Part shown: positions 34,107 through 64,000 of the stretch, one piece after another | How the letters are laid out: the number at the start of each line of letters is the position of its first letter | Position numbering within the stretch: position 1 is the first letter of the stretch | Source of the DNA: Fimbriimonadia bacterium | GTDB taxonomy: Bacteria; Armatimonadota; Fimbriimonadia; Fimbriimonadales; JABRVX01 | Assembly (NCBI GenBank): GCA_041483895.1 | Contig: JBGPGO010000007.1 | Location: 1-64,000, forward strand | Reading direction: 5' to 3' | Length of the DNA stretch: 64,000 bases | Program-made: the position numbers and the translations under genes | Notes under the pieces: model-generated | What the model saw: the letters and a program-made list of their open reading frames with translations, nothing else | Told to the model about the DNA's origin: nothing | The model's database searches: none

Positions 34107-34182
34107 TCCTCGGTAGCTCAGTTGGTAGAGCAGCTGACTGTTAATCAGCGGGTCGTAGGTTCGAGTCCTACCCGAGGAGCCA
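34107..34182 (+). tRNA. tRNA-Asn (GUU); island attachment site
   Basis: TCCTCGG/CCGAGGA acceptor stem, GCTGA-CTGTTAA-TCAGC anticodon arm, T-loop, CCA. Confidence 0.97.
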
Positions 34183-34263: not shown

Positions 34264-34450
34264 TGGGCGCGGGGGTTTTCCGAGTTTTCCGAGGCTTCTT
34301 AACGTGCGCGCGAGGCGGAATCGGTTGGTTTGGACCGGAGTGTTCGTTCCTTACATGACTCGCCTCGATCTTCCAGACAGTCGTCGCCGGTCAGGACGCA
34401 ATCTAGGAACTTTTCACGCAATCATGTCTGCCTAGGAGGTGGCGCAAATC

Positions 34451-35638
34451 ATGGCGAAGAGACGATCCAATGGCGAAGGAACAATTACGCAAAGGAAGTG
34501 CGACGGCCGATGGGAGGCTCGGCTGTTCCTCGGCTACATAGGCGGCAAACGAAAGTGGAAGTTCCTGCACGCCGCGACAAAGGAAGTGGCGGTGAAGAAG
34601 CTGCGCGAGGCGCAGGTCCAGCACGCTCGCGGCGTCAACGTCGCACCGGAAAGGCAGACGCTAGAGCAGTTCCTCTGGCGCTGGCACGAAGAGGTCGTGA
34701 AACTCCGAAACCGACCGAAGACAATTCTCTCTTACGAGCAACTGATCCGCGTCCACCTCGTGCCCTCACTCGGACGCTTCACTCTCCAGAAGCTAAGTCC
34801 ACAAGATGTTCAGATGTTCCTCAACGAACGGTATCGCTCCGGCCTCTCGCCCCGGACCGTTCAGTATCTGCGTGGCGTGCTCCGTTGCGCCCTGAACGAT
34901 GCTCTTCGTTGGGACCTCGTGCATCGAAACGTGGCAACACTTGCCCAACCGCCAAAGGGCCAACGCAAAGAGATGACGGCGCTTGGACCCGAGGAGGTGA
35001 AGCGCTTCCTCATTGCCGCCGAGGGCCACCGGCTGGAGGGCTTCTTCGCGCTCCTCATGGCGACCGGCATACGACTCGGCGAAGCGCTGGGCCTCAAGTG
35101 GGAGGACGTCGATTTCGACAAGGCGACGTTGACGGTGAGAAAGCAACTCCAGCGCCTGAAGGGTTCCGTATCGCTTATCGATCCAAAGACGGACCGCGCC
35201 CTGCGCACCATCCCGATCGCGCCGTTCGCGATCGAAGCTCTTCGCGGGCATCGCTCTCGCCAACTCGAAGAGCGATTGAGGAATGCGGGCAAGTGGGAAG
35301 ATCAAGGGTTCGTCTTCTGCACTCAGGTCGGCACTCCGGCGGATGAGCGGAAGATACGAAACGGCTTGCGGGAGATTCTCAATTCGGCGGGCCTTCCCAA
35401 GATGCGCGTCCACGACCTTCGCCACACCTGCGCGACCCTGCTCCTCTCGCGCAACGTCAACCCTCGCGTCGTGCAAGAGGTCCTTGGCCACTCGAACATT
35501 AGCCTGACGCTCGGCACGTATAGCCACGTACTGCCGACGCTCGCCAGGGAAGCGGCGGACCAGATGCAGGCGGCCGTTGCAGGCTCGCCGCGCCCCACGG
35601 CCTTGCGACCATCCGGCTCATTTCTAGCCCGGCCATAG
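34451..35638 (+). CDS. int: Tyrosine integrase (phage/ICE type)
   Basis: KRRSNGEGTI N-terminus; TGIRLGE, HDLRH, LGHS, TYSH catalytic residues intact. Confidence 0.96.
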   Translation: MAKRRSNGEGTITQRKCDGRWEARLFLGYIGGKRKWKFLHAATKEVAVKKLREAQVQHARGVNVAPERQTLEQFLWRWHEEVVKLRNRPKTILSYEQLIRVHLVPSLGRFTLQKLSPQDVQMFLNERYRSGLSPRTVQYLRGVLRCALNDALRWDLVHRNVATLAQPPKGQRKEMTALGPEEVKRFLIAAEGHRLEGFFALLMATGIRLGEALGLKWEDVDFDKATLTVRKQLQRLKGSVSLIDPKTDRALRTIPIAPFAIEALRGHRSRQLEERLRNAGKWEDQGFVFCTQVGTPADERKIRNGLREILNSAGLPKMRVHDLRHTCATLLLSRNVNPRVVQEVLGHSNISLTLGTYSHVLPTLAREAADQMQAAVAGSPRPTALRPSGSFLARP

Positions 35639-48461: not shown

Positions 48462-49773
48462 GCACAACCCGATGCTTGGGGATGCTTGCGTCTTGCCGCA
48501 CTTTCTCGGCGGCATCCTCCGCGCGCCGCACAAACTGCTCCGGTGTGGCTTCACCGTTGAGCAGTGCGGTCATCGCGTTTTCCAGTGCCTTGCCGACCGA
48601 CGGATACCATTGTGTGAACTGGATTGACCATACTGCCTTTGAGTTGCGAAACGCGGCAGCGGCCCCTGTAAGGTAGGAAGGAATGTTCGTTTGATCGCTG
48701 CCCCGAACGGACATCAGCGTGCCCTTTTCGGACACAAACTGCTTCGCCTTTTCCGGCGTTGTAAGGTATTTATAAAAATCGATCGCGATGTCCCGATGTT
48801 TTCCCTTTGACGGCACGACCCACGGTTCGATGCCGATGCAGATCGCGGTTGGATCGCCGGTTCCTCCCGCGACGATCGGGGGTGGCATATACTGCATTTC
48901 GAATCGGGGTGGCAGTTGCTTGCTCATCTCTGAGTGTAGCCATGTGCCGCAGGGAATCATTGCCGCGCGCCCGCCGACAAATTCCATCTGCGCTTCAGTG
49001 TGGCTCATCCCAACGGCGCCCTCTTGGAAGAATCCCCGGTCCCGCAACTGCTTGATCATCTTAGCAGCCTGCAAGAATGCCTGAGACTTCCAAGCGCCGG
49101 GTCGCAGCTCCTGTGCCGCGTTGAATGCTTCGACACCGCCGATGCTGATCGCCCAAGGATACAGGAGGCCGGTGAGAACGTATTGCGGATACTTGCCCTG
49201 GAAAGTGATTGGCGCGATGCCCGCGGCCTTGATCTTGTCGCAAAGCGCCAGCAGCTCTTCGAACGTCTTTGGCGCGCTCCAACCGTGGTCCGCAAACAGC
49301 TTTGGGTTGTACCACCAACCCATAACGTTGAAAAAGTATGGGAGCATGTATCGCTTACCATCGTACTGGCCCATCGTCATGAGAGATGGTTCGAACGCAT
49401 CGATCCACTTTCCCTTACCGTCGTACGCAGGCGTGGCGAGGTACTCATCGAGAGGGATCACTTGGTCTTCGTAAATCAGGGACCAATAGTCCATGTCCCA
49501 GCCCGGCCAGGTGAGATCCGGTGGGGTTCCGGCGACAAATCGTGGACGGAGCTGCTCCCAGATCCTGGGGTTGCCCCAGACGCGCAACTTGACGTTTGGG
49601 TGCTTTGACTCATACTCGCGCGCAGCCGTTTCGAAGAAGTCGATCCCGTAGCCGCCTTGAAAGAGCGCAACCTCAACATCCGCGCCGGATCCGGATCTGG
49701 CTTGCTTCTCACTGCAGCCGGCAAGGCAAAGGCAGGCAAGGACAGTGGCGAGCAATCGGCATTGTTTGGTCAC
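48454..49773 (-). CDS. Sugar ABC substrate-binding lipoprotein (NgcE-like)
   Basis: LAGC lipobox; VALFQGGYG, FVAGTPPD, MIPCGTWL. Confidence 0.9.
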   Translation of the reverse strand: MTKQCRLLATVLACLCLAGCSEKQARSGSGADVEVALFQGGYGIDFFETAAREYESKHPNVKLRVWGNPRIWEQLRPRFVAGTPPDLTWPGWDMDYWSLIYEDQVIPLDEYLATPAYDGKGKWIDAFEPSLMTMGQYDGKRYMLPYFFNVMGWWYNPKLFADHGWSAPKTFEELLALCDKIKAAGIAPITFQGKYPQYVLTGLLYPWAISIGGVEAFNAAQELRPGAWKSQAFLQAAKMIKQLRDRGFFQEGAVGMSHTEAQMEFVGGRAAMIPCGTWLHSEMSKQLPPRFEMQYMPPPIVAGGTGDPTAICIGIEPWVVPSKGKHRDIAIDFYKYLTTPEKAKQFVSEKGTLMSVRGSDQTNIPSYLTGAAAAFRNSKAVWSIQFTQWYPSVGKALENAMTALLNGEATPEQFVRRAEDAAEKVRQDASIPKHRVVRD

Positions 49774-49959
49774 AGGGCAGCTTTCGGCATATGCAGAAGC
49801 AGGTCCTGCGTCCGGTGCATGCTCCAAATATTGGCCCTCGATGGGAGCTTTGCAATCAGATTGGTCGCACTGCGGTGTGTGTCGCGGGTTGGTCCGGTCC
49901 AGAGAGGGCGCGACAGACTTTGGAGCACATGGAATGCGTGGCTCAGCGGTTTGGGTCAG

Positions 49960-50265
49960 CTTCCGGGCAGTGGCGACGGTCTGTTTTCGTTGCCCGCGCC
50001 TGTCGGGGTGTTGGACTTGTCGGTGAACGGGACGCATTGGCTGCGGCGGACCGTTGGCGAGTTCAACACGACCGGCGGCAACGCGAGCATGGGAACTGTA
50101 CCGCTGATCAACGGCGACGCACACGAAGACAGCATCGTCGATCTGTTCGACTTGGTCCTGATCCTCCTCGACTTCGCCACCGCCGGCCCAACCGGCGACG
50201 GAAGCGTCGACCTGTACGAACTTTCCATCGTTCTCGCCAACTTCAGCATGATCGACGAACCGTAG
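49960..50265 (+). pseudogene. Orphan C-terminal dockerin-like domain fragment
   Basis: THWLRRT...LINGDAHEDSIVDLFDL...GDGSVDLYELSIVLANF; no credible 5' gene. Confidence 0.7.
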
Positions 50266-50313
50266 CGTTCCTGAGAGCGGTACCGTTGGCTGGATGACGA
50301 CATTGATGCGGCA

Positions 50314-51249
50314 TCACGCCAGCTCGGACAGCAGTCGGCTCGTCCTGCCCGGCAGGTGTTCCCGTGCATCGTCGTAGATCATCAGCGTCTCCAGTTTGGA
50401 ATGGCGGCTGAGCTTCTGCGCGCCGCGCACGTCGCCGTTGGTGGCGTGGAGGTAGGCGGTGATGCTGGTGTGCCGCCACTTGTGCGGACTGAAGTTCTGG
50501 ATGCCGGCCTTCTTGGCATAGTGCTTTACCATGAACGCAAGGCCGACGCCGGTGATGCCGGATGGCTGGCCGGCGCAAGAGAGGAACAGTTCCGGTCGGC
50601 TATCGTTCCGACATGCGAGGTAGTCGCCGATCGCTTCTATGGCCTTATCGCTCAGTGTCATCAGCACCTTCTGAGTCCCTTTGCCTTTGCCACGGACGGC
50701 TAGCGTCTTCGCATCCGGATCGAAGTCGGCCTTCGTCAGATTGCAGATCTCCTGCCTGCGAAGCGCCAGTTCCCAGAACAACCGGAGGATCGCCGCATCG
50801 CGCTTCCCCTTGACGGTAAAGGTGTTCGGCAGCATGAGCATCGCGGCCGCAGCGTCCTTGTCCACGCCCCTGGTGTCTCGATACTGCATTGTCTTCTCGC
50901 CCGGCACCAGTCCCTGCGGATTGACTTCCGTCAGCCCAAGCTGCCGCGCAACGCTCAGAAGCGAGCGGATGGCCGTTAGCCGACGATTGAGGGTCACCTC
51001 CGCCACGCCTTGCTCGATCTGCTGCATCTTGAAGGTGAGCATCGCCCGAACGACGCCGGTCGTCTCAAGCTTGAAGAACGCTCCGATTGTCTGCGGCGTT
51101 GGCTCGCTCCTGGCCACGACCCGGAAGAACAGCCCTAGATCCCGCTGGTAGGCCAGCCTCGTGACTTCGCTCCGCTTGGACTTCAGAAGGAACTCCAGTG
51201 CATCCGGCGCCACCGGACTCGGTTCTGTAAGTTTGAGTTCAATTGCCAT
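50314..51249 (-). CDS. XerC-like tyrosine recombinase / resolvase
   Basis: TRLAYQRDL, TLNRRLTAIRS, LALRRQE, GKG, PHKWRH, SRHS, IY; AGGAGG RBS. Confidence 0.93.
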   Translation of the reverse strand: MAIELKLTEPSPVAPDALEFLLKSKRSEVTRLAYQRDLGLFFRVVARSEPTPQTIGAFFKLETTGVVRAMLTFKMQQIEQGVAEVTLNRRLTAIRSLLSVARQLGLTEVNPQGLVPGEKTMQYRDTRGVDKDAAAAMLMLPNTFTVKGKRDAAILRLFWELALRRQEICNLTKADFDPDAKTLAVRGKGKGTQKVLMTLSDKAIEAIGDYLACRNDSRPELFLSCAGQPSGITGVGLAFMVKHYAKKAGIQNFSPHKWRHTSITAYLHATNGDVRGAQKLSRHSKLETLMIYDDAREHLPGRTSRLLSELA

Positions 51250-51263
51250 GGTCCTTGCCTCCT

Positions 51264-51295
51264 TTGGTATCGAAAAGGGCCATTATCGATACCAA
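51264..51295 (+). other. loxP/dif-like site S1: TTGGTATCGAAAA-GGGCCA-TTATCGATACCAA
   Basis: 13-6-13 palindrome abutting the recombinase RBS. Confidence 0.85.
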
Positions 51296-51411
51296 CACCA
51301 CATGTACTCGAGGGCTCCCACAGAAGTCCAGGCCGCGTGTAAGTGTCGATAGAAGTAAGTCGGTCGGCACGGATCGGGGGCATCCGGGGAATCCTACGCA
51401 ACAGAATGACG

Positions 51412-52737
51412 TCAAATGTCGATCTTGCTGCCAGATGTTGGCGCGATATCGAGGGCGAGTTCGATGGCCTGCTCCATTGTCAGCGCGCGTCCTTCCTGCC
51501 AGGCGGACGCGAAGGCTTCTTCGCCCAGAGCGGCGCGCGCGTCGGCGAGCTGAACGTCATGGCGGATGCGATCGTTCGGCGACAACGGTGAACCGCTTTG
51601 CACCCGCATCACCTCGACCGCGCTCCACAAACGCGCGGCCCGCGCCGCCTCCCCTTTCGAAAGCCAGAGAGCGGCAAAGGCCTGAAGCGAGTGTCCGATG
51701 AAGAAGGGGAGCCCAATTTTGCGAAGAATCGCCAAGCTCTGCTCATGCAGTTCTCTCGACGAGCCGAAGTCGCCCCGCTGTTGCGCGACGATTCCCAATT
51801 CGAGGAGCATGACCCCTATTCCCGGCCGGTCTCCAACCTCTCGCCGAATGGTCAAGCTTTCCTCAAAGAGGGCGCGCGCCGATTCGTAGTCGCCCCGTTC
51901 TTTTGCGATAATCCCTAGGTCGCCAAGCGAGTCCGCGATCCCGCGCCTGTCTCCCACCTCTCGCCGCAAGGTCAGGCTCTCTTCATAAAGCGCGAGCGCC
52001 GACTTCTGGTCGCTATGCGCTCTTGCGATGCCTCCAAGATTGTTGAGAGTGACCGCGATGCCCCGCTTGTCACCCAATTCTCGATAGAGCGACAGGCTCT
52101 CTTCATAAAATTCTCTCGCCGGCCCTAGATCGCCTTGCCGGCTGTAGGAGTTGCCCATATTGTTCAGAGAGCCGGCTATGCCCACCTCATCCCCTATCTC
52201 GCGAAAGACCGACAGGCTCTCCTCAAAGAGCGTCCGGGCTGCCCCATTGTCGTCCTGGAAGTGAGCCAAGCCGCCCGCCCCGTTCAACGCCTTCGCTCTC
52301 GCGGCCGTGCGACATCCACTTTCGTCCCCGGACAACACGATTCCGACCCGCTCGCGCCCCTCAACCAGATGCCCACGCACGGACCAGAAACGCCACAAGG
52401 CCCCAGCGAGACGCAGGGCCTCGGCGTCGTTCCGCAGCTCAAGGACTGATCTGAGGTTGTCATGATCGGACTCCAGTCGTTCCAGCCAAGCAGCCTGCTC
52501 CAGCCCCGTCAACTGCGGTTCCGCTTCCTCCGCCAGCGTCAAGTAGAAGCCACGGTGCCGGTCCCGAACGGCCTCGCCCTCGCCGCTCTCGAACAGACGA
52601 TCCCGCCCATACTGCCGCACGGTCTCCAATAGCCGATAGCGCGTCTGCCCGTTATCCTCTTCGGTCACAACGAGATTCTTGTCGACGAGGGAAGCGAGGA
52701 TTTCGCCTGCCTCGAAGGAGTCGATTGGCCCGCTCAT
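51412..52737 (-). CDS. Winged-helix + TPR sensor module 2 (C-terminal part of a STAND protein)
   Basis: LVDKNLV..RYRLLETVRQY, HDNLR, SLNNMG/TLNNLG TPRs, GRALTMEQAIELAL. Confidence 0.88.
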   Translation of the reverse strand: MSGPIDSFEAGEILASLVDKNLVVTEEDNGQTRYRLLETVRQYGRDRLFESGEGEAVRDRHRGFYLTLAEEAEPQLTGLEQAAWLERLESDHDNLRSVLELRNDAEALRLAGALWRFWSVRGHLVEGRERVGIVLSGDESGCRTAARAKALNGAGGLAHFQDDNGAARTLFEESLSVFREIGDEVGIAGSLNNMGNSYSRQGDLGPAREFYEESLSLYRELGDKRGIAVTLNNLGGIARAHSDQKSALALYEESLTLRREVGDRRGIADSLGDLGIIAKERGDYESARALFEESLTIRREVGDRPGIGVMLLELGIVAQQRGDFGSSRELHEQSLAILRKIGLPFFIGHSLQAFAALWLSKGEAARAARLWSAVEVMRVQSGSPLSPNDRIRHDVQLADARAALGEEAFASAWQEGRALTMEQAIELALDIAPTSGSKIDI

Positions 52738-54041
52738 GCCTCGTTCGCCTCTAATGCGAATTCAACAGCTTGTTCTGTCGTCATGAGGCGGCCCTCCTGC
52801 CATGCCTGGTAGAATGCGGCATCGTCTCCCATATCGGCCCGGGCTGAGCTCACGCGTCGATCGTACTTCGATATTTCGCACGGCATTAGGGGTGATCCGA
52901 TCTCTTTGCGTAGACGTTCCGACGCGCCCCAGATTTGGGCGGCTCGAGGAGGATGGGCGAGTGGCGCCAGTTGTTCCAGCGAGCCGGCGATGCCCCTCGG
53001 ATCACCAAGTTCCTGCCATATTTTCACACTCTCCTTGAGTAGCTGCTGTCCAGCAATGCGGTCATCCAGTTCTCCTGCCACAGCACCAAGGCCTTGAAGC
53101 GCATTGGCGATTGTCCGCCGGTCGCCAAGGTCCCGAGCGATGGTCAGGCTTTCAGATTGCAGCGCTTCGGACATCGAGTACTCGCCACGATGCAAGGCCA
53201 CAAACCCTAGGTTGCATAGCGCCATGGCAATACCCAACCTGTTGCCGGCTTCCCTCATGATCGCCAGGCTCTCCTGATGCATGGTCCAAGCGGTTGGGTA
53301 ATCGACCTGCTCGGTGGCCATAATGCCGAGGTTGCCCAGCGCAACAGCAACGCCATACCGGTCATCGAGTTCTCGAAAGATCGCGAGGCTCTCCTCGAAC
53401 ACGGCTCGCGCATTCAGATGATCGCCCTGTGCCTTCGCCACATTCCCGAGACTGTTCAGTGAAACGGCAACCCCGAGACGGTCGCCGAGTTCCCTCCTGA
53501 TCGCCAAGCCCTCTGCCAACAGCTCTAGAGCGGCTGTATAGTCGCCTTGCTGTGAGGCCAACGAACCGGCGCCGTTAAGCGCCAATGCACGGACCGACCC
53601 AGATTGTCCGCCCGGTTCGACAGCCAGAAGTCCGGTGAGCCAATCACGTCCTTCGCTGATATGCCCACGGATCCACCAGAATCGCCAGAGAGCACCGGCC
53701 AGCCGGAGGCCCAAATCATTTCCGTCACATTGCTCGCGGCACCATTTTAGAGCCGACCGAAGGTTGTCATGCTCTATTTCGAATCGTTCCAGCCAAACCC
53801 CCTGGTCGGGCCCCGACAACTGGGGCACGGCTTCTTCCGCAAAGGCCAGAAAGTTATCTCTGTGTTTAGTCCGCCACTCATCGCTCTCACCGGTCTCCAA
53901 CAAACGCTCTCCTGCGTACTGTCGCACGGTTTCCAACAGACGAAAGCGCGTATGTCCACCTTCCTCTTCAGTCACAACCAGATTCTTGTCGACAAACGAG
54001 CCGAGTAAGTCAAGGACTTCCCGGGTTTCTATGGCGTTCAT
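52734..54041 (-). CDS. Winged-helix + TPR sensor module 1 (C-terminal part of a STAND protein)
   Basis: FVDKNLV..RFRLLETVRQY, HDNLR, TPRs, GRLMTTEQAVEFAL. Confidence 0.88.
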   Translation of the reverse strand: MNAIETREVLDLLGSFVDKNLVVTEEEGGHTRFRLLETVRQYAGERLLETGESDEWRTKHRDNFLAFAEEAVPQLSGPDQGVWLERFEIEHDNLRSALKWCREQCDGNDLGLRLAGALWRFWWIRGHISEGRDWLTGLLAVEPGGQSGSVRALALNGAGSLASQQGDYTAALELLAEGLAIRRELGDRLGVAVSLNSLGNVAKAQGDHLNARAVFEESLAIFRELDDRYGVAVALGNLGIMATEQVDYPTAWTMHQESLAIMREAGNRLGIAMALCNLGFVALHRGEYSMSEALQSESLTIARDLGDRRTIANALQGLGAVAGELDDRIAGQQLLKESVKIWQELGDPRGIAGSLEQLAPLAHPPRAAQIWGASERLRKEIGSPLMPCEISKYDRRVSSARADMGDDAAFYQAWQEGRLMTTEQAVEFALEANEA

Positions 54042-54042
54042 T

Positions 54043-55509
54043 TCACTCCGGATCCGAGCAGACGGATTCGGCTGCTTCGAGCGTCCAGCCGCCCGAGAAA
54101 ACGGACAGCCTACGCAACATCGTTTGTTCCTTCTCGCTCAGCAGGTCGTAGCTCCAGTCGATCAGCGCGCGCAGGGTCTGTTGTCGCGGCAGTGCGGTGC
54201 GGCTGCCGCCGGTGAGGAACCGGAAGCGGTCGTGCAGCCGATCATTGATTTCCTCCACCGAGAGCGCCCGCACCCGCGCCGCCGCAAGTTCGATTGCGAG
54301 CGGAATGCCGTCGAGATGGTGGCACAGCGAGACTAGCGCCGGCGCGTTTGCATTCGTTATCTCGAAGTCTAGGCGTGCCATGCGGGCGCGGTCGATGAAC
54401 AGTTGCGCCGATGCGAATTGCGAGAGCCGCTCGATCGTGTACGTCTGCTTCGGGTCCGGAGTCTCTAGCGAAGGGACTCGGTAGCTTTGCTCGCCCGTGA
54501 TGCCCAACGCCTCGCGGCTGCTGGCTAAGATCTTCACGCCAGGACATGAGCGAATAATTGCGTCCGCGACCTTTGCGCATTCTTCGAGCAGGTGCTCGCA
54601 GTTATCGAGCACGAGCAAGAGATTCTTTTTCTTAAGCCACTCGACCAGCGTCTGCGAAATCGATTTGCCTGGCTCTTCCTTCGCCCCCAGCACGTTTGCC
54701 ACTGCCTGCGGGACCAGATTAGGATCGCTGAGAGACGCCAATTCCACGAGCCATACTCCATCTCCGGTGCCATCCAGGAGATCGGCCGCTACCTGCACCG
54801 AGAGGCGGGTCTTTCCGCAGCCGCCGGAGCCGGTGAGCGTAACGAGGTGATTGGTTTCGACGAGACTTTTGACCTCCTCGACCGCCTTCTCGCGGCCGAT
54901 GAGCGAAGTGGTTTGTTGGGGCAGGTTGTTGGGGAGCTCGGGGTTGTTGAGTGAGCGCAATGGCGGAAAATCGTCTGGTAGATCAGGGTGTAGGAGTTGA
55001 AACACCGTCTCCAACCGCCCCAGGTCCTTCAGGCGGTGCTCGCCCAGATCTCGGAACATCACGGATTCCGGCAGGTTGTCGCGACACAGGTCGTAGGCCA
55101 CGCCAGAAACCAGGGTCTGACCGCCGTGTCCGATCGCGAGTAGCCGGGCGGTGCGGTTCAGCGGCTGGCCAAAGTAGTCCTCGTCGCGGAATTCGACTGC
55201 GCCGGTGTGCAATGCCATGCGAACTTTGATAGGTGTCCCTTCTGCCCACGGCTCCGATACCATTGCAAGCTGGGCGGCGAGAACCGCGGAGACCGCTTCC
55301 GGCGCCGTCGCGAACGCCGCGCAAAATGCGTCTCCAACTGTCTTGAAGATATGGCCCCGCGCGGCCGTTATGGCATCCCGAATCAGGGAGTCGTGACGAG
55401 CAACGGCCAGACGCATCTCTTCGGGTTGTGCCTCCCAGAGAGTTGTGCTCCCCTCGATGTCCGTGAACAAGAAGGTGACGGTACCGAAAGGAGGCTGTGC
55501 TGGGCTCAT
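54043..55509 (-). CDS. Class III adenylate/guanylate cyclase + NB-ARC/STAND NTPase (ends before the winged-helix/TPR part)
   Basis: TFLFTDIEGST, KTVGD, YFGQPLNRTAR; GSGGCGKT, LLVLDNCEH, LDGIPLAIELAAAR. Confidence 0.92.
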   Translation of the reverse strand: MSPAQPPFGTVTFLFTDIEGSTTLWEAQPEEMRLAVARHDSLIRDAITAARGHIFKTVGDAFCAAFATAPEAVSAVLAAQLAMVSEPWAEGTPIKVRMALHTGAVEFRDEDYFGQPLNRTARLLAIGHGGQTLVSGVAYDLCRDNLPESVMFRDLGEHRLKDLGRLETVFQLLHPDLPDDFPPLRSLNNPELPNNLPQQTTSLIGREKAVEEVKSLVETNHLVTLTGSGGCGKTRLSVQVAADLLDGTGDGVWLVELASLSDPNLVPQAVANVLGAKEEPGKSISQTLVEWLKKKNLLLVLDNCEHLLEECAKVADAIIRSCPGVKILASSREALGITGEQSYRVPSLETPDPKQTYTIERLSQFASAQLFIDRARMARLDFEITNANAPALVSLCHHLDGIPLAIELAAARVRALSVEEINDRLHDRFRFLTGGSRTALPRQQTLRALIDWSYDLLSEKEQTMLRRLSVFSGGWTLEAAESVCSDPE

Positions 55510-55697
55510 GTCTCATTGTACTCCTTGCTACTGAGCGATACGAATGAAACGAGCAACCACGGCGCTTATTCAGCGACGAGGTCCTTCCGGGGCAGATTGG
55601 ATAGTTACCGAGCGTAACAATTCCCGATTTAAGCTTTAGGGCCGTCGTGAAATGGGCTCTCGAAAGAGACTTCTTAGGAGTCGTCCTCCTTGGCCTT

Positions 55698-55727
55698 ACC
55701 TATCGATAACGTCCATTTTCGATAGGT
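55698..55727 (+). other. loxP/dif-like site S2: ACCTATCGATAA-CGTCCA-TTTTCGATAGGT
   Basis: 12-6-12 palindrome with the same core as S1. Confidence 0.85.
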
Positions 55728-55764
55728 TGACCGTCGTGGCAACGGACCGTGGTCCAACCCGGCG

Positions 55765-56103
55765 CTAGCTTCCAAGAAGTCGAGCGAAATCCAAGATGTC
55801 GGCAACGAGTGCGTCATCGACCGAGTCAGTACCGTGTAGAACGAAGTGGTAACGGTGTTTTGGGCCGTAGACCTCAAATCGGCGTAGAATCGGGAGCGAT
55901 CCAAGGGGTTCGCGCCATAACATGATGCCTTGATCTTGGCTGCTGGCGTACAGAAGAATCCGCCGGCCTAAGACAATCTTGGCGTTGCGATCCGTTTGCC
56001 GATGATCGACCTCGATTGCAAGTCCTTCGGCTCGAATCCCCAGAAGCAAGGTTCCTAGAGCAGCCATCCGCCGATCGACGTCTACGTGGTCAACTGATGC
56101 CAT
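55765..56103 (-). CDS. Hypothetical protein downstream of hsdR
   Basis: Co-oriented ORF with a GGAAGGG RBS-like sequence; no motif recognised. Confidence 0.45.
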   Translation of the reverse strand: MASVDHVDVDRRMAALGTLLLGIRAEGLAIEVDHRQTDRNAKIVLGRRILLYASSQDQGIMLWREPLGSLPILRRFEVYGPKHRYHFVLHGTDSVDDALVADILDFARLLGS

Positions 56104-56120
56104 TGATGCCACCCTTCCAA

Positions 56121-59100
56121 TTAAGCCACCGCCCATTCACTACTCAAAGCCTCAGCTTGCTCCAAGACAGTCTGCGTCGCTTTCTCCTGCTTATCCGGCG
56201 GGTAGCCGTACTTGCGCAGTATCCGCTTGACAATCAGCCGCAAGTGAGCGCGGACGTTCTCACGGATGGTCCAGTCGATGGTCACGTTCGCCCGGACAGC
56301 CGTTACAAGTTCCTGCGCGATTGTCCGCAGCGTATCGTCGCCCAAGACCTTGACGGCAGAATCGTTCGTCTCCAAGGCATCGTAGAAGGCCAGCTCGTCC
56401 TCGGACAGCCCCATCTTCTCACCACGCGCCTCTGCTTCGCGCAGCTCCCGCGCTAGCTTGATCAATTCTTCAATGACTTGCGCAGCCTCAATCGCCCGGT
56501 TCCGGTACTTCCGAAGCGTGTCCTCAAGCATCTCGGCAAACGAACGCGCCTCTACCACATTCTTGCGCCCGCGCCTGCCAATCTCCCCCGCCAACAGTTT
56601 TCGAAGAAGCTCAACCGCCAAGTTCCGTTGCGGCATGTTGGCGACCTCAGCCAAGAACTCATCGGACAGGATCGATATGTCCGGCTTTTCCAGACCGGCG
56701 GCGGCGAAAACGTCCATTACCCCCTCGGATGCAATTGCTCGCGAAACGATCTGCCGCACCGCATGGTCGATCTCTTCTTCCGTCCGCGCCCGATCTGGAT
56801 CACCCTTGGAAAGCGCCGCCGCGACCGCCTGGAAGAACGCTACGTCGTCTCGAATCCGTAACGCCTCAGGATGCGGCACCGAAAGCGCAAACGCCTTCGA
56901 CAGATCCCGCGCCGCGCGCACGAACCGCTCCTTCCCATCCTCTTGCGCCAAGATGTGTTCCTGCGCTCCGGGGAGAAGGCTCAGCCGCTCACTGGGAGAC
57001 TGCGACATCCATGCCGACCAGTCGAATCCATGGAACATGCCGCAGCAGATCTCGTACTTCTCCAGCATGACGGCAACCGCTTCGTCCTGATCTAGAGCCG
57101 GTGCGCCGGTCCCACCGCTCTTGGTGTAGGTGGCCAGCGCTTGTTTCAACTCATGCGCGATACCGAGATAGTCCACCACCAACCCACCGGGCTTATCTTT
57201 GAACACCCGGTTCACCCGCGCGATTGCCTGCATCAGGCCGTGCCCGCGCATCGGCTTGTCCATATACATCGTGTGCAATGACGGCGCATCGAATCCCGTC
57301 AGCCACATATCGCGCACCAGCACGATTTTGAACGGATCGTCGGGATTGCGGAATCGATTAGCGAGCTTCTCGCGACGGCCCTTGTTGCGGATATGCTCCT
57401 GCCAATCGACAGTGTCGCTTGCCGAGCCGGTCATCACGACCTTCATGGCGCCCTTATCGTCGTCCGAGTTGCCCCACTCGGGTCGCAACTTCACAAGCTC
57501 TCCGTAAAGCTCGACGGCGATTCTGCGGCTCATGCACACGATCATCGCCTTGCCTTCCATCGCGTCAAGCCGCTGCTCATAGTGCTGAACGATGTCCTCG
57601 GCGATTAGCCGGATGCGCTTCTCCGACCCAACAATGGCTTCTAGCTGCGCCCATTTCGTCTTTAGCTTTTCCTTCTGCGATATCTCCTCGCCTTCGGTTA
57701 CCTCTTCGAACTTCGGATCGATCCTGGGCCGCTCTGCTTCATCGAGTTCGAGCTTCGCCAGCCGACTCTCGTAATAGATCGGCACGGTTGCCTGGTCCTC
57801 GACCGCCTGCCGAATGTCGTAAATGCTCATGTAGTCATCGAACACCGCCCGCGTATTCTTGTCTGTCAGTTCGACCGGTGTTCCGGTAAAGCCGATAAAC
57901 GATGCATTTGGCAGTGCGTCGCGCATATGGCGGGCGAACCCATCAATGAAATCGTACTGGCTCCGGTGCGCCTCGTCCGCGATGACGACGATGTTGTGCC
58001 GGTCCGATAGGACAGGATGCTGATCGCCTTTGTCTTCCGGGAAGAACTTATGGATCGTCGTGAACACGACTCCGCCGGCATTCACCGACAGCTTCTTCCG
58101 CAGGTCAGCGCGATCGGTCGCCTGAACCGGCGGCTGGCGCAGCAGTTCCTGGCAGGCGGAAAACACCCCGAACAGCTGATCGTCAAGATCGTTCCGATCC
58201 GTCAGAACGACCAGCGTCGGATTCTCCATCGCAGCTTCAGTAATAACGCGAACGGCATAGAAAGCCATCGTTAGGCTCTTGTCGGACCCTTGCGTGTGCC
58301 AGACGACGCCAATCCGCCGATCGCCCGGTTTGCCTCCTGCCTGGTGCTTTGCCATATAGCCGCTCTTCTGCTCCCGCACAACGTCCGTCCGCAATTGCGC
58401 CGTGCGAACCGTCTCCTCTATCCCAACATTGACAGCGTGAAACTGGTGGTATCCCGCCATCTTCTTGACGATCTTGCCACCGCCCGAATCTTCGAAGACG
58501 ATGAAATGCCTGAGCATCGAAAGCAGACGGCGTTTCTCGAAAATTCCTTGGATGACAACTTGCAATTCCGGTAACCTCGAATCCGCAACGCTATCTCCCG
58601 TGATCGCCTTCCACGGCTTGAACCACTCCTTCCCGGCGCTGAGGGTGCCGACGCGCGCCTGTAAACCATCGGAGATGACGAGCAGTTCGTTGAAAGAAAA
58701 GAGCGTCGGAAGCTCGGCCTTGTAAGTCGGAATTTGGTCATATGCCGTCCAGATGGTGGCATTCTCATCGGCGGCGTTCTTCAGTTCGAAAAGAGCAATC
58801 GGCAGTCCGTTGATGAAGACGACAATATCTTGTCGTCGGGTGTGCTTATTCTCAACGACGGTGTATTGGTTAACGGCCAGCCAGTCGTTGTTATCCGGAT
58901 TGTCAAAATCTATGATCCGAGCCTGCTCCCCCTTGATCGTTCCGTCGGCTCGCTTGAATTCCACGGTGACGCCGTCCACCAACATTCTGTGCAAGGCGCG
59001 ATTTCTTGTCTCGACCGTCGTTCCTTCGCTGCGGGCAATTTTCCGAAAGGCATTCTCAATTGCATCTACCGGCAGCGACGGGTTCAAAGTGACCAGTGCT

Positions 59101-59270
59101 TGTCGTAGCCTTACCTCGAGAATAACCTGTCCGTAATCCTCGCGCTAGGCGAACAGCCCTTCCGGTGCAATCTCCAAGCCGTTTTGGATAGCGTAGTCCA
59201 GGTCTTTCAGCCACGCAAGGGCGGCGTCCTCAACCTGTGATTCGACGAAGCTTGACAGTCCTGCACCCCA
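56121..59270 (-). pseudogene. hsdR: Type I restriction enzyme R subunit, inactivated
   Basis: [35 protein letters not shown]; in-frame TAG at 59145-59147; Walker A reads QGSDKS instead of QGSGKS. Confidence 0.9.
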
Positions 59271-59273
59271 ATG

Positions 59274-59743
59274 CTATTCAGTTGACAATTTCAAGTATAC
59301 AGTGTTTCCCGTGTGAGTATCGTAACGATGTACACTAACAAGCCCGCCTGCGACATAGTCGAACCACTTCTCGCCAGTAACAAGCACCAGTTTCGCGGCA
59401 CGGGCACAGGCAGCAATCCAAATGTCATTATCGCGATTGGGAACCGCTGGCTTGGATTCAATCTTGACTCTGTACTGAATCGCTGCATACGCATTGACGA
59501 CTTCGTCTCGGTGGATCTCAACCATCGTGGCCCTCCGAAGTCGATGCTGCTGTCAGATATCGTGCTCGTGTTCCAGTTTCTTTGCCTTGCAAGAAACGCT
59601 ACCTCACCGATTGTCACTGAGCTAATGAATATCGGTGTGTGCGATTGAAGCCCCAACTTCGAAGCAAGCTGTTGACCCACTTCGCGGTTGCGTGCAAGAT
59701 ATACGATCGCATTCGTATCAAGGAGATACTCGTGCTCTGGCAT
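59274..59743 (-). pseudogene. PIN/VapC-family nuclease, frameshifted
   Basis: YLLDTNAI...ISSVTIGEV in one frame; DNDIWIAACA...LVTGEKWF in another. Confidence 0.85.
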
Positions 59744-59744
59744 G

Positions 59745-60698
59745 TTACCGAAGCGTCTCGAGGAGTTTCGTCAATTCCTCATCCGTCTCGTCGCCGGGCC
59801 AGGTCCCTATCCAATCACCGATCGTCAGTGCACCACGATTGCGAAGACGCAGCTCATTAATGATCGCTCCTGCGCTCGGCAATTCGGTGAACACGGCATC
59901 CCGAACCTCAGCAGGACGCACAACCATAGCTTCCAGCCGCAACTGCTTGCCGTTCGGCTTGTATATTAGATCCCCGTCGACCGCCACTGGTTCCCGACTA
60001 GTTATGTAGTGGCCAAGTCGCTCTGGATCGGAACCTACCCAAACTCCGCGCAGGCGTTCCTGACCATCTTTGATAAGAAGCTCAAACGAAGATTCGGAAA
60101 CACGGACCATATCGAGCCGTCCCACAATTCGGACTCTCTGCGGATCCGGAGTTTTCTCCAGCAGCAAACATGCGTGATCGGCTAGCGCCTTGTCAGCAGG
60201 CTCTCGTGTCGTACGGGCCACGTTGGGAAATGCGAGATATTCAACACCTTCCTTACCTGCTCCCTTCATTCTCGCAAAGTCCTCAAGTAGATCCGTGTCG
60301 TATCGACTGCTTTCCTCAACTTCGTGTTGAACATCGACGACCGCGTCCAGCAAATACTCAAATGCCGTGTCGTCTGGGTTAAGTGGTTCGCCAAAAAGTG
60401 CGGGTTGTTCAAGAAGCTTGGGTGCAGCTTCCTTTATGGTGGGTGCGCAATAAACTAACCCGTCTTGGGACCAGCCCTTTTCGAAGATCTCCCAAATCGG
60501 CCGAATGACGGATTCCGGCCTCCCAACTTTCCTGCTAATGGAAACGACGCGCATTCTTGTGCTTCGCCGGAGGCTCTCCTCGACCCAGCGCGACACAAAG
60601 CGCCCGGCGCGAGGGGTCGCCATCCCGTCGCGTACCCCGCGTCCTTTGACTTGCACCACTCTCTCAACTAGTTGCAGCTTCACACCTCCTCTGTTCAA
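59745..60698 (-). CDS. Hypothetical protein upstream of PIN (possible antitoxin partner)
   Basis: C-terminus IGTWPGDETDEELTKLL; 1 nt from the PIN start. Confidence 0.65.
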   Translation of the reverse strand: MNRGGVKLQLVERVVQVKGRGVRDGMATPRAGRFVSRWVEESLRRSTRMRVVSISRKVGRPESVIRPIWEIFEKGWSQDGLVYCAPTIKEAAPKLLEQPALFGEPLNPDDTAFEYLLDAVVDVQHEVEESSRYDTDLLEDFARMKGAGKEGVEYLAFPNVARTTREPADKALADHACLLLEKTPDPQRVRIVGRLDMVRVSESSFELLIKDGQERLRGVWVGSDPERLGHYITSREPVAVDGDLIYKPNGKQLRLEAMVVRPAEVRDAVFTELPSAGAIINELRLRNRGALTIGDWIGTWPGDETDEELTKLLETLR

Positions 60699-60753
60699 TA
60701 TACATCATTGGAATGGCGGCAAAACGCTCCAGTCTTACGTTTGAGACCAATTG

Positions 60754-61212
60754 TCATATGACTTCCGCAACTGCCCGCTCAGCATCGGCGATTCGGATCT
60801 TGCCAGAAATCAACTTTGGCACCAAGGTATCACGCAGAGTTGCAATGGTTCGTGACTCAAGGGCGTTTAAGACATATTTCGCCATGAGCGGTCCAATAAC
60901 GCCATCAAGAGCAAATATGTCCACTCGGACAAGCATATTGTCGCGCAGAAATGTCGCCTCGAAAATTGCCGGCACTTCGGTCGTCAGGATCTCGTGAGTT
61001 CTTTGGGCAGCATCCTCGTTCGACAACTCCCAAGTTGGTACGAGCACTCCACCCGGAAACAGTTCTTGCGCCAGGTTTCCGATGCGCTTCCCTGATTCCA
61101 TCCTTGCCTGTGTAGCGCTCGAAGGTGGAGCCTTCTCTTCCGGCATGTGGATTGTCATCCATAGTGCCTTCGGGCAGTTCTCGGCCGTAGTGAACAAAGA
61201 CTTTGTTAGCAT
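60754..61212 (-). pseudogene. Deletion fusion: DUF2779-like PD-(D/E)xK protein N-terminus joined to the HsdS C-terminus
   Basis: MLTKS...CPKALW...G..IG.LAQELFPGG...IFEATF...VRVDI, then ESRTIATLRDTLVPKLISGKIRI. Confidence 0.75.
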
Positions 61213-61443
61213 GAGTTCAACCATTCGCTCTCTAGCTCTAATACTCGATAAGTGACCCAGATTCCTTTTCGGCCCTCGTATGATTCCGACTGCCGCTTTC
61301 AAAGCTGCCACGCGACCACTTTCAGGAGCCAGAGACCAAGGTGGTTGAGCGATCAATGCGTTGGATAATAACGGGTGCTCGACTCGTTGACCACTCCGAT
61401 TCGTCCAATTCGGCGTCAGAAGTCCGCCAGCGTCCATCTGGGT

Positions 61444-61697
61444 GCGTGTCAAAATGAGTGTCAAGCGGTCGAAATTGCAGGTTGAAAGGTTACGTCAGAA
61501 GGTTACAATTAGCTTCAAAAACGGCTGGCTCCTCGGGTAGGACTCGAACCTACGACCCGCTGATTAACAGATGCGAGGACCGCCGTCCATTACGCGACAC
61601 TTACGTCCGATTAGCGCACATACGTCCGCGACATCGTTCCGTTATGTATCCATAAGTCCGTAGGCGTCCATTACAAAGCGTGTCAAATTGGTGTCAA
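61444..61697 (-). other. attP-like junction: 45-bp tRNA-Asn 3' core (61526-61570) with arm-type doublets on both sides, inverted relative to the tRNA
   Basis: Exact reverse complement of 34138-34182; GTGTCA doublets at 61446/61458 and 61680/61691. Confidence 0.9.
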
Positions 61698-61746
61698 CAG
61701 TCTTGGCCGCAGGGGCAGATGACGCTCACAGGAGAAATCGCAACCG

Positions 61747-61778
61747 CAGCTATCGATAATGGACGTTATCGACAGCTG
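61747..61778 (-). other. loxP/dif-like site S3: CAGCTATCGATAA-TGGACG-TTATCGACAGCTG
   Basis: 13-6-13 palindrome; the spacer is the reverse complement of the S2 spacer. Confidence 0.85.
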
Positions 61779-61781
61779 GCA

Positions 61782-62812
61782 CTATCCCGGTGGTGCTTCA
61801 TATCCGAAGAATCGAGAAAAGATCCGCTTGTACTCCTCCGTTTGCTCTTGGTCTGGCGGGAATACCTCAGCTACCGTGTCGGCACTCATGTCGATCAACG
61901 ATTCGGTTGTAACAAATGAGCGAAGGTCCTCGCGATCAAGAATTGATTTCACACCACGATTCCAAATGAACAGCTTGAGACCTGCGTTCTTCACGGCATC
62001 TTCGATGACCGCATTGATATGCTCGTCACCGAATCCATAACCAACTATCATCAGGCGAACGTCCCTGCATGAAGCACGGATCGAAATTGGTTGTGAAATT
62101 GCTGAAGTATCGGAAAAGCTGCAATTTGCACAGGTTTGGAACCGCCCATGATTAGCATCCCATCTCCGGTGATTGATCGCCAATTCGCGGAGCCATGCAG
62201 CTTGACGTAATTGAATCGACCGACAAAACTGGATTGGATCGTCGGATCGAGTTCGACCATCAACTCGTGGAGAGTAGACCCTTGGGGCGATGCAAACCAT
62301 GGCTGGCTTGTTCCCAGTTGCCATTTTGCGGGTCTAGGATCACCTGGCAGAATCAGATCACATCGCGGGCGAGAGCCGTTGAAATACGTTCGCTCCACAA
62401 GCAGGTCCTGATTCGTCGTAAAGAAGAATCCGGTGTCAATCGATTTGTCCCAGCCCATTCCCATGAATGCCTGTATGAGATGGCTCCAGTACTTGGAGCC
62501 GACAGGCTTTGGACCGGCCCTGCGCATGGTGTCGTCCATTCCAATAAAGGCTGCAACAATCGCCTTTTCCAATGCGCAGGCAGATGCCGGAGATTGCTTC
62601 CTTGTCTCGTCCAGCGCTAGTTCATAGTCATTCGGGTTGTTCTTAAGAAGCTCTCGTACGTTTGGATGTCCTGCCAGCGCGGGGTGTCCAAAGACCTGTA
62701 TGCAAATTTCAGTCGCCAATCGCCCCCAGGGATCCTTGCTGAAGCCAGCGCCAGTCAATAGCACGGCACGTGATGTCTTGCCAGTTGGTTTCATCGCTAA
62801 CCAATTCTGCAA
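61782..62812 (-). pseudogene. SIR2-like (SIR2_2) protein, frameshifted near 62060
   Basis: LLTGAGFS, FTTNQD, VKLHGS in one frame; LMIVGYGFGDEHIN in another. Confidence 0.85.
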
Positions 62813-62885
62813 ACTGCGCAGCCAACCTGTAGGGGAGCGGAGTCAGACACACGATTCGCGACTTTGATGGCTGGGCTCGCCGATC

Positions 62886-62951
62886 GTGGACTTCTTCGCG
62901 ATCCCCCGAGTACATGTCGTTTTGGTATCCATGATGGCGCTCTTGATAGGT
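62886..62951 (-). repeat. Degenerate site S4 plus ~35-bp flank: inverted copy of the recombinase leader (51264-51330)
   Basis: TGGACTTCT..CGAGTACATGT.GT.TTGGTATC.AT.ATGGC.C shared with the reverse complement of 51277-51330. Confidence 0.75.
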
Positions 62952-63120
62952 GAGTTGACCACGCCTTGGCCTCGTTGTTTCTGAGCAATTCTCTGCGCGG
63001 CGGTCGCACTCAGGAAGGAACCGGGACGCGAGGGCACGAGGTCAAAGAGATTGCGAATGCAGCCGTGTACGGCGAGTGAACCATGAAAGGACAATAGCGA
63101 CCTTCGGCAATTCTTGCAAA

Positions 63121-63216
63121 GGGTTCGGACTCGTACCGGAGCCCGCCGGCGTGGCTGCGTTCGCTGGCACCAGCCTAGGGCTCCTAGCCCTTCGGCGAAG
63201 CAAGGCCCGAAGGTAG
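63121..63216 (+). pseudogene. Orphan PEP-CTERM tail
   Basis: GFGLVPEPAGVAAFAGTSLGLLALRRSKARR*; the upstream frame is closed at 62944. Confidence 0.75.
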
Positions 63217-63234
63217 CGCGAATAATCCGCTAAC

Positions 63235-64000
63235 CTAGTCCACGATGACCGTCTGGTTGGTTTTGGGCGCAGTCGCCGGCCAGAGGAGCTTTTTGCCATC
63301 AGCCGTCCGAGCCACGATGTAGTACTCGAAATCCTCCTGCGCCGCAGGCAGTGTCGCCTGGTATACCGCGCGGCCCAGATGCCGGAGCTCGATCCTTTGG
63401 AACTGCCCTTTGCCGAGCGGGCGAAGGCACAAGTACGCTTCACTCGCCGGCAAGTTGTCAAGGATGGCCACACGGAGCGCGAGTGATTCCCCTTTGCGCG
63501 CTTGAGTGCGCACGGTCGGCACAACGATGCGCGTCGCGCCGGCGTAGTGGTTGGACGGGGCGGCATCAAGAGGAAGCGGTCTTTCGAGAGCCGCCGTGAT
63601 CTCATTGTCGTAGGCATCGAGCGTGTGCATGGTACGGCGGCTCTGCATCTCAAAATTTGCTATCGTGCCTAATTCCCCGGGGGTGTCACAGGCGGCGGCC
63701 TGGTATGTCATCAACTCCTCCCAGGCGCGCGCTATGGCGACACGAGACACCAACGCGTCGGAAGCCAGTTGCTTCCGCTTGGAGGTATCCGTCTCATTCT
63801 TCAGCGCCGCCGCCGCCCGATCCAACTCCGCCCGCAGGCAGCCCACTCGCGCAATCGCTTTGACTGCGCGATAGGTGTTGAGCCAGTAGTCGAAGCGCTC
63901 GAGATTGCCTGCTCCGCGTACGCGGGAACGCAGCTTAGCGAAGGACTCGACGAAGGCGAACTGCTTTTGGACGGTCTCCCACGGCACTCCGTTCGGCAAG
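63235..64000 (-). CDS. C-terminal part of a large glycoside-hydrolase-like protein (runs off the window)
   Basis: GAGNLERFDYWLN, TPGELGTIAN, C-terminal beta-sandwich WPATAP. Confidence 0.6.
   Translation of the reverse strand, partial: LPNGVPWETVQKQFAFVESFAKLRSRVRGAGNLERFDYWLNTYRAVKAIARVGCLRAELDRAAAALKNETDTSKRKQLASDALVSRVAIARAWEELMTYQAAACDTPGELGTIANFEMQSRRTMHTLDAYDNEITAALERPLPLDAAPSNHYAGATRIVVPTVRTQARKGESLALRVAILDNLPASEAYLCLRPLGKGQFQRIELRHLGRAVYQATLPAAQEDFEYYIVARTADGKKLLWPATAPKTNQTVIVD

Follow-up and report, generated by a model that had tools for sequence, protein, structure and literature searches.

Recombinase gene and dif-like sites in the window

The window analysed in this study is the first 64,000 nucleotides of a 210-kb contig (C7; GenBank JBGPGO010000007.1) in the genome assembly of a Fimbriimonadia bacterium (GCA_041483895.1; 3.95 Mb, 43 contigs). 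Near its right end it carries a gene for a Xer-like tyrosine recombinase and four related palindromes, S1 to S4, which separate blocks of accessory genes (Table 1). The initial annotation had read this region as a recombinase acting on its own array of dif-like sites, and its description of the layout was confirmed. Matches without mismatch to TCGAWAA-N6-TTWTCGA were found exactly at S1, S2 and S3. S1 ends 17 nt from the ATG of the intact recombinase gene and abuts the AGGAGG of its ribosome-binding site (RBS). The gene blocks fit the intervals between the sites, with the stop codon of the SIR2-like open reading frame (ORF) 3 nt from S3 and that of the ORF at 55765 37 nt from S2. When up to two mismatches were allowed, the window still contained S1-S3 only (three matches against 0.62 expected; three were reached in 1 of 100 shuffles). 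All three conform strongly to one dif-like sequence of 28 nt, NNTATCGAWAA-NNNCCA-TTWTCGATANN.

The six-base centres were read directly off the sequence. Those of S2 (CGTCCA) and S3 (TGGACG) are identical and inverted, as had been claimed, and the two sites form an inverted repeat of 92 % identity over 26 nt. S1 shares its polarity with S2 and has a different centre, GGGCCA. Because the S1 and S2 centres differ, simple excision of the cyclase operon between them, which had been predicted from their common polarity, is doubtful.

S4 had been described as degenerate, and it scores below 12 with a position weight matrix (PWM) built from the strong sites and shows no fold. It is still homologous to the S1 leader: together with S1 and the S1 flank it forms a 58-nt inverted repeat (81 %). 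Aligned with the four recombinase leaders, it still has the promoter-like flank, together with decayed remnants of the site and of the gene start, and S4 is therefore the leader fossil of a third, now lost recombinase copy. The intact form of this leader site is well kept in the genome, its 32 nt being identical at S1, C7:66523, C4:151714 and C1:195114.

Table 1 Features of the window and of related loci in the same genome (positions without a contig name refer to the window, which is the start of C7)
Feature	Position	Strand	Remarks
tRNA-Asn gene, attachment point of composite island	34107..34182	+	ARAGORN; last 45 nt recur inverted at 61526-61570
Phage-type integrase, distinct from the Xer-like recombinase	34439..35638	+	399 aa; Pfam Phage_integrase, Phage_int_SAM_3
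ABC-transporter binding protein	48454-50124		query against G001/G002
Xer-like tyrosine recombinase, copy 'a'	50314..51249	-	311 aa, intact; Pfam Phage_integrase 71 bits + SAM_1
S1, leader-type site	51264..51295	.	centre GGGCCA; between promoter-like flank and recombinase RBS
Leader flank upstream of S1, promoter-like	51296..51330	-	kept in four leaders and the S4 fossil; also joined to hybrid site C11:100274
Module 1	51412..55509	-	cyclase-NB-ARC gene and two paralogous TPR genes; Pfam, weak PADLOC PycC match (E 1e-4)
TPR genes, module 1	52734-54041, 51412-52737	-	two paralogues; Pfam; internal repeats spaced 1307 nt
Adenylate/guanylate cyclase-NB-ARC gene, module 1	54043-55509	-	Pfam
S2	55698..55727	.	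centre CGTCCA; polarity as S1; PWM 41.1
Module 2	55765..61464	-	123-aa ORF, HsdR, PIN-like (150 aa), 317-aa ORF, half-size HsdS; Pfam, NCBIfam, PADLOC
HsdR, module 2	56121-59087	-	Pfam, NCBIfam, PADLOC
Half-size HsdS, module 2	60754-61464	-	Pfam, NCBIfam, PADLOC
tRNA-Asn 3' end copy (att core)	61526..61570	-	perfect 45 nt; inverted relative to gene; GTGTCAA repeats flanking
S3	61747..61778	.	centre CGTCCA on opposite strand; inverted relative to S2; PWM 41.2
Module 3a, SIR2-like gene in two overlapping ORFs	61782..62812	-	62812-62051 and 62324-61782
S4, fossil leader	62887..62990	+	flank, decayed site 62922-62951, decayed recombinase start; below PWM threshold
Module 3b, 3' part of malectin-domain gene	63235..64000	-	981 aa; extends to C7:66180, before leader site C7:66523
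Other intact recombinase copies	C7:66568-67515 ('b'), C4:150749-151696
C7 series past the window	66523; 69638, 73902, 79097		leader site 66523 (identical to S1, inverted), then copy 'b', then three sites
ParB-N/DNA-methylase fusion genes	C7:80275-81567, C4:135500-137332, C11:134522-135817		at island backbone end

Distribution of the sites in the genome

When the whole 3.95-Mb genome was searched with the exact pattern, 20 matches were obtained, of which 19 are true sites, and the reversed control pattern gave none. A PWM scan of the same sequence (score ≥25) yielded 27 sites, all in eight clusters on contigs C1, C2, C4, C6, C7 and C11; nothing comparable was found outside the clusters in that scan. 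For 23 of the 27 sites, one of the eight recombinase loci is found within 15 kb. Each of 40 related genomes contained zero to two chance matches to the pattern, and the full site was found in none of them. Thus, the motif is not scattered through the genome and is linked to the recombinase, the outcome that had been anticipated for such a scan. With the invariant CCA setting the orientation, the consensus reads NNTATCGAAAA-NNNCCA-TTATCGATANN. It has two 11-nt arms around a 6-nt centre, and its inner ends are ATAA and TTAT, the inner ends of the dif consensus that was used for comparison.

The sites are intergenic in the ORF maps and at least seven lie within 30 nt of a stop codon. They are located at the borders of modules, and their placement is border-like, not operator-like. 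An operator function, in which the recombinase or another dimeric island protein would bind the palindromes for regulation without strand exchange, seems to us quite improbable. S1 does have a conserved promoter-like flank on one side and the RBS on the other. On the minus strand, a promoter-like match (55742-55715) whose -10 hexamer is the S2 right arm (GAAAAT) also faces the cyclase operon, and the sites may supply outward promoter elements. However, eight of the 27 sites are located between convergent gene ends and several stand a few nucleotides past stop codons, Xer core sites have just this 11-6-11 layout and ATAA/TTAT as inner ends, and a repressor model gives no role to the centre classes or to the hybrid site described below.

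A structural function of the palindromes as hairpins in single-stranded DNA or RNA (a repetitive extragenic palindrome, a terminator or an attC-like site) is very improbable. Single-stranded S1-S3 fold at -7.1 to -10.4 kcal/mol (z about -4.8), and in 14 of the 27 sites the two variable outer positions continue the palindrome, compared with about eight expected. Against this, the sequence itself is kept and not just the pairing. The outer positions are often mixed (CC..CC, GC..GG) with no clear covariation, and the A/T difference between the arms is a mismatch in the stem. None of nine terminator-like matches in 50000-64000 falls at a site, such matches are not above the number in shuffled sequences, and no Rfam match was obtained.

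Properties of the recombinase

The annotation of an intact Xer-like tyrosine recombinase is borne out by domains, structure and catalytic positions. Its Pfam domains (PF00589 and PF02899) define a Xer-type fold, XerA is its second-best NCBIfam match, and the nearest solved structure is that of archaeal XerA (4a8e), in an alignment which covers R, HxxR, H and Y. Tyrosine recombinases use the catalytic residues R-K-H-R-H/W-Y, and each of the three intact copies retains the R, K, HxxR, H and Y positions. The enzyme is not an equivalog of the named Xer proteins, as the bit scores of copy 'a' are far under the curated cut-offs for XerC (110 against 335), XerD (88 against 330), XerA (98 against 220) and XerS (58 against 267). 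The integron integrase (IntI) models scored 23.2 bits (TIGR02249, cut-off 265) and 20.5 bits (NF011946, cut-off 435), and matched only the last ~55 residues. Two separate genes, at C14:24618 and C13:116437, are stronger XerC/D-like candidates, and the island enzyme is therefore not the housekeeping pair.

The eight recombinase loci comprise three intact genes and five fragments. The intact copies differ from each other by a synonymous divergence (dS) of 0.63-0.92, with a ratio of non-synonymous to synonymous divergence (dN/dS) of 0.059-0.085 (0.07-0.085 for copy 'a' against the other two). By these values the intact copies are old and maintained under strong purifying selection, and despite this divergence their leader sites are identical. 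The repeated unit consists of the gene and a leader of ~60-85 nt only. No half-site was found just past the recombinase stop codons, where the best PWM score was below 0.

The fragments at C1:195623, C6:16010 and C11:124098 break near the same place in the protein, at residues ~135-156, which may indicate a recurrent breakpoint inside the recombinase gene. Directly after the N-terminal fragment at C1:195159-195623 are SIR2-SAVED and SMODS-domain (nucleotidyltransferase) genes (C1:195982-198695), which resemble a cyclic-oligonucleotide-based anti-phage signalling system.

A family of tRNA-linked islands

The site clusters belong to islands with a common backbone. The C7 island starts with the tRNA-Asn gene and a phage-type integrase, which is 44 % identical to the integrase beside tRNA-Arg in the C11 island, and the C11 island ends with a DUF3854/DUF927 protein, this integrase and tRNA-Arg. 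Two further site clusters are abutted by tRNA-Lys and tRNA-His. The common backbone genes are found past the last xAACCA site. The ParB-N/DNA-methylase fusions of C7 and C4 are 90 % identical and each shares 60 % with that of C11, a small backbone gene is 90 % identical between C11 and C4, and ~470 nt of 81 % identity are found directly beside two xAACCA sites. A fourth, distant copy of the ParB-N/DNA-methylase fusion is located on C39. From these relationships, the sites are internal features of a multi-copy, tRNA-linked island family and not a one-off local array.

Both the C7 and the C11 island look like two fused scaffolds. Two island scaffolds face each other head to head in the window, which accounts for the common centre and the opposite polarity of S2 and S3. 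The C7 island is probably composite and rearranged. In G001 and G002, two genomes of the same family and another genus, synteny with C7 begins only at the PFOR gene near C7:82.1 kb and continues rightwards. The ABC-transporter binding protein was not found in these two genomes with that query, and no empty site could be defined.

Three related units were also noticed on C7 (34100-34330, 61380-61700 and C7:81640-81870), in each of which a tRNA-Asn end is combined with a flank of ~50 nt and a repeat, TTGACAC-N5-TTGACACGC. In the 61.5-kb unit, which is inverted, copies of the repeat enclose the perfect 45-nt core and give it an attP-like appearance. The 81.7-kb unit, just before the core PFOR gene, retains only ~8 nt of the tRNA end and is identical to the 61.4-kb flank over 28 nt.

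Order and polarity of the sites

When the sites were oriented by their centres, a regular arrangement was observed. Sites on the leader side of the recombinase gene have the polarity of the leader site and downstream sites the opposite one in 21 of 23 cases; the two exceptions are located upstream of a 5'-truncated recombinase fragment. Read along the contigs, polarity is + + - - + + + for C7, - - + + for C4 and six times + for C11. The leader-side polarity is shared with the leader site in all four leader-bearing islands, and a mirrored array stands downstream of the gene. The centres also follow an order. Next to the leader site (GGGCCA) the centre is CGTCCA in four of four cases, with the fossil S4 lying between them at C7 copy 'b'. 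The first downstream centre is TCGCCA in five of six cases and is followed by TGTCCA and/or GAACCA, CAACCA or TAACCA.

Matching slots of different islands carry unrelated cargo. This cargo consists of multi-gene modules of 1-14 kb in either orientation and includes cyclase-NB-ARC-TPR genes, malectin and SIR2 genes, a sigma factor gene with ORFs of unknown function and a lectin-domain gene, a beta-helix giant protein, the Kdp operon, an RND efflux pump, CHAT-NB-ARC genes, OsmC, acyl-CoA dehydrogenase and MetE-like genes, and glycan genes. Thus, the claim that the modules are defence modules stands in part: defence genes are present, and Kdp, RND efflux, glycan and metabolic genes are carried as well. 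Apart from this, sites with like centres have unrelated flanks, which are on average 31 % identical in like-centred pairs (leader pairs included), compared with 25-27 % for unlike-centred pairs.

Homologues in other genomes

Forty-four homologue loci were fetched with up to 10 kb per side. The near-full-length matches share 37-54 % identity with the recombinase and are mostly from Nostocales. A leader-site pattern stands just before the recombinase match in 20 of the 44 loci, and variants were seen by eye in others. The carriers include cyanobacterial plasmids, a Margulisbacteria-labelled contig, G001 and G002 and a Deltaproteobacteria-labelled contig. The arms vary by lineage while the inner AAA-NNNCYA-TTAT is constant; the initial annotation had expected a site in the leaders of homologous recombinases, and an analogous arm-AAA-NNNCYA-TTAT-arm site is what was found. 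In G001, whose enzyme is 71 % identical, the arms are GGTCACG, the distance from the start codon is equal, and a second site is present elsewhere. Conservation of the leader site extends across phyla, and the arms change together with the enzyme. The recombinase is the sole thing that the three small site- or integrase-bearing contigs of G001 have in common with the study genome. Two recombinase homologues (39-41 % identity) were found on viral contigs.

Each of two complete cyanobacterial plasmids (15.6 and 20 kb) has a single gene with a single leader site, plasmid matches are mostly one per record, and 26 of 400 sampled other genomes of the phylum have the recombinase gene, mostly in single copy. 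The ancestral state looks like a plasmid-type unit of one recombinase and one site, which would have expanded in this genome. These plasmids and single-copy genomes also agree with the possibility that only the leader site works, for resolution of multimers or circular forms and for autoregulation, and that all other sites are relics of lost cassettes or old integrations. S4 is exactly such a fossil, and five of the eight recombinase loci are fragments. Nevertheless, we regard this possibility as unlikely. The 23 non-leader sites keep their 9-nt inner arms almost perfectly, when S4 shows how fast a disused leader decays. They form centre classes of their own, only C11:100274 among them has a leader flank, and their positions are fixed relative to the recombinase gene in several diverged islands.

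A scan of metagenomes with the site pattern returned six loci, one of which has a 39 %-identical recombinase and two sites. The other five showed no recombinase within up to 10 kb per side (three of these contigs are just 3.5 kb long). The contig with the recombinase (GC 43 %) carries the gene at 3-704 and the sites at 759 and 7154, 6.4 kb apart, and is an independent small case of a multi-site locus.

Possible footprints of recombination

The site at C11:100274 is a hybrid. On the left, the arm and the 'TCG' of the centre correspond to a TCGCCA site. On the right, the arm and ~40 nt of flank correspond to a leader, and the break in homology thus falls within the site, right of 'TCG'. This structure fits a deletion between a TCGCCA site and a leader site of the same polarity, which would leave exactly such a hybrid. 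A duplicated address is also found on C11, where two GAACCA sites in direct order flank 14.7 kb and the distal one alone has backbone flank; this pair fits what is expected after insertion at that address. On C7, the 45-nt tRNA-Asn core is inverted and integration makes direct repeats, which implies one inversion or more with an end between the cores. The only suitably placed inverted repeats in C7:30-90 kb are the recombinase genes with S1 and C7:66523 (965 nt, 86 %) and the S2/S3 pair. Taken together, the footprints favour real strand exchange at the sites.

Parts of 51000-60999 were present in 23 sediment metagenome runs, and four of these (X1, X4, X5 and X6) were compared with C7:49001-69000. 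One contig spans S3 unchanged, and contigs stop at the repeated leader site and the tRNA core, as expected of repeats. Contig joints lay off the sites: 1562/18197 inside two paralogous genes, the others with sides shorter than 40 nt.

Proposed mechanism

Our preferred reading, which we hold to be reasonably probable, is that S1-S3 and the 24 other sites are core recombination sites of the island-encoded Xer-like recombinase and that exchange takes place between sites with like centres. The anatomy, distribution and conservation of the sites and two recombination-like footprints were observed directly; from these we infer binding, strand exchange and current activity. The recombinase would bind the conserved arms of all sites and would probably repress itself at its own leader. 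Recombination between like-centred sites would insert circles, delete or invert segments, or exchange island copies slot by slot, and unlike centres would keep neighbouring modules from being lost. The scaffold consists of the phage-type integrase, the ParB-methylase, small genes and the recombinase as the backbone common to the islands, with the fixed site series CGTCCA, GGGCCA (leader), recombinase gene, TCGCCA, sometimes TGTCCA, and finally GAACCA or another xAACCA centre; the intervals from one site to the next hold the cargo, which is different in each copy.

In C7 the same-centre inverted pairs are S2/S3 and S1/C7:66523. Two inversions are thus predicted: S2 x S3 would invert the 6-kb segment 55.7-61.7 kb, and S1 x C7:66523 would invert 51.3-66.5 kb. 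Ready excision of the cyclase operon is not predicted, since the S1 and S2 centres differ.

Several points weigh against this proposal. Homologues elsewhere mostly consist of one site and one gene, which fits a plain role in plasmid resolution, and multi-site use may be peculiar to this genome. Unlike centres block exchange in classical tyrosine recombination, and because neighbouring centres differ, most adjacent pairs, S1/S2 included, should be inert. The fixed order and polarity could be inherited from an ancestral island without present function, and each footprint is open to other histories. S2 has an arm variant that does not agree with its centre, a combination which simple reciprocal exchange cannot give. 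In the four metagenome runs no rearranged junction was found at the sites, where short contigs of ~5x cannot show rare forms. Finally, the gene calls are greedy ORF maps made without a trained gene finder.

We also put forward, as a rather doubtful extension by analogy, that the six-base centres are slot addresses in a natural recombinase-mediated cassette exchange between island copies. In the laboratory version of this reaction, heterospecific lox or FRT spacers are used, like centres pair, and segments are swapped and not lost. The engineered system and the islands have common arms and different centres, and a natural equivalent is conceivable here. Two like-centred crossovers would swap cargo between cells or replicons, and unlike neighbours would prevent self-deletion. 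The invariant CCA half and the break right of 'TCG' at C11:100274 would permit an occasional one-strand exchange between addresses, which would be a route for capturing new DNA.

Comparison with known systems

The dif (pdif) modules of Acinetobacter Rep_3 plasmids are similar to the present islands in that many 11-6-11 dif-like sites bound discrete, mixed accessory modules. In these plasmids the host XerC and XerD act, the sites have distinct XerC and XerD arms, and neighbouring sites alternate in orientation. In contrast, the islands have a dedicated, single, self-encoded Xer-like recombinase beside its own site, near-symmetric arms, and same-polarity arrays which flip at the recombinase gene without alternation. 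They are chromosomal and tRNA-linked in a distant phylum, compared with plasmids of a single genus. Recombination of like spacers, which is proposed for the islands, was shown experimentally for pdif sites in Acinetobacter plasmids, and the same report describes the dif-module system as unique to Acinetobacter (PMC13141974). At the level of titles and abstracts, these dif modules are the sole counterpart found in the literature, and no self-encoded Xer-like multi-site cargo system was found there.

Integrons share with the islands a tyrosine recombinase gene with a leader site, same-polarity sites between accessory genes, and defence cargo; chromosomal integrons with defence cassettes are reported in a preprint (bioRxiv 10.1101/2024.07.02.601686). 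Compared with integrons, the island sites are short (28-32 nt) and conserved in sequence (9-nt inner arms, 27 copies), arrays stand on both sides of the gene, modules are multi-gene, and the enzyme scores far under the IntI cut-offs. attC sites are long imperfect hairpins of 57-141 nt which are defined by structure and not by sequence. Every defining test for an integron (IntI scores, attC features) gave a negative answer except for the polar array from the leader site. The initial annotation had spoken of a self-encoded, pdif- or integron-like system: its recombinase-linked sites do bound modules, and apart from the polar array its integron features did not hold.

In XerA/dif, XerS/difSL, XerH/difH and Cre/loxP, as in the islands, the site adjoins a single recombinase gene. 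Systems of this type have one site per replicon for dimer resolution. The present genome differs in its 27 sites in eight clusters, its eight gene copies and its additional XerC/D-like genes; a plasmid-type resolution pair describes the two cyanobacterial plasmids and not this genome. Composite tRNA islands likewise combine tRNA genes, phage-type integrases and fused scaffolds. When such islands grow by tandem accretion at tRNA genes, the internal repeats are the att sites of the integrase itself, whereas here a second, Xer-like enzyme with its own sites subdivides the cargo.

How cargo is gained and replaced at island hotspots is mostly unexplained, and here the hotspots are marked by putative substrates of an island enzyme. 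If the proposal is true, cargo turnover would be a defined reaction with the rule that like centres pair, and the idea of dif modules, which has been described only for Acinetobacter plasmids and host XerC/XerD, would also apply to chromosomal islands that encode a dedicated recombinase in a distant phylum. A family of short-site recombinases that is heterospecific by nature could serve as a tool. If the sites are inert, the locus would still be a clean example of a plasmid-type resolution gene multiplied within one genome.

Cargo modules in the window

Module 2 had been annotated as a type I restriction-modification block. HsdR, the PIN-like gene and a half-size HsdS are present, but the module has no HsdM, and N6_Mtase matches in the genome were found only at C4 and C17. 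We also considered an hsdM partner next to a site elsewhere in the genome. A complete type I system exists solely at C4:158695-166361, adjoining site C4:158640, and it is unrelated, with an HsdR that is 24 % identical. The orphan HsdR with the half-size HsdS, PIN-like protein and 317-aa ORF may be a decayed or unusual type I system. A shufflon or other invertible coding segment was rejected, as the sites are intergenic and no second copy of the half-HsdS for swapping was found.

The two SIR2-like ORFs of module 3a are in different frames and SIR2 models match in the 3' ORF only, which suggests a frameshifted pseudogene or an assembly error. In module 1, the cyclase-NB-ARC gene is followed by two translationally coupled TPR paralogues, with ~77 % DNA identity over blocks at 1307-nt spacing. 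The module resembles a STAND sensor whose repeat domain has been split off and duplicated.

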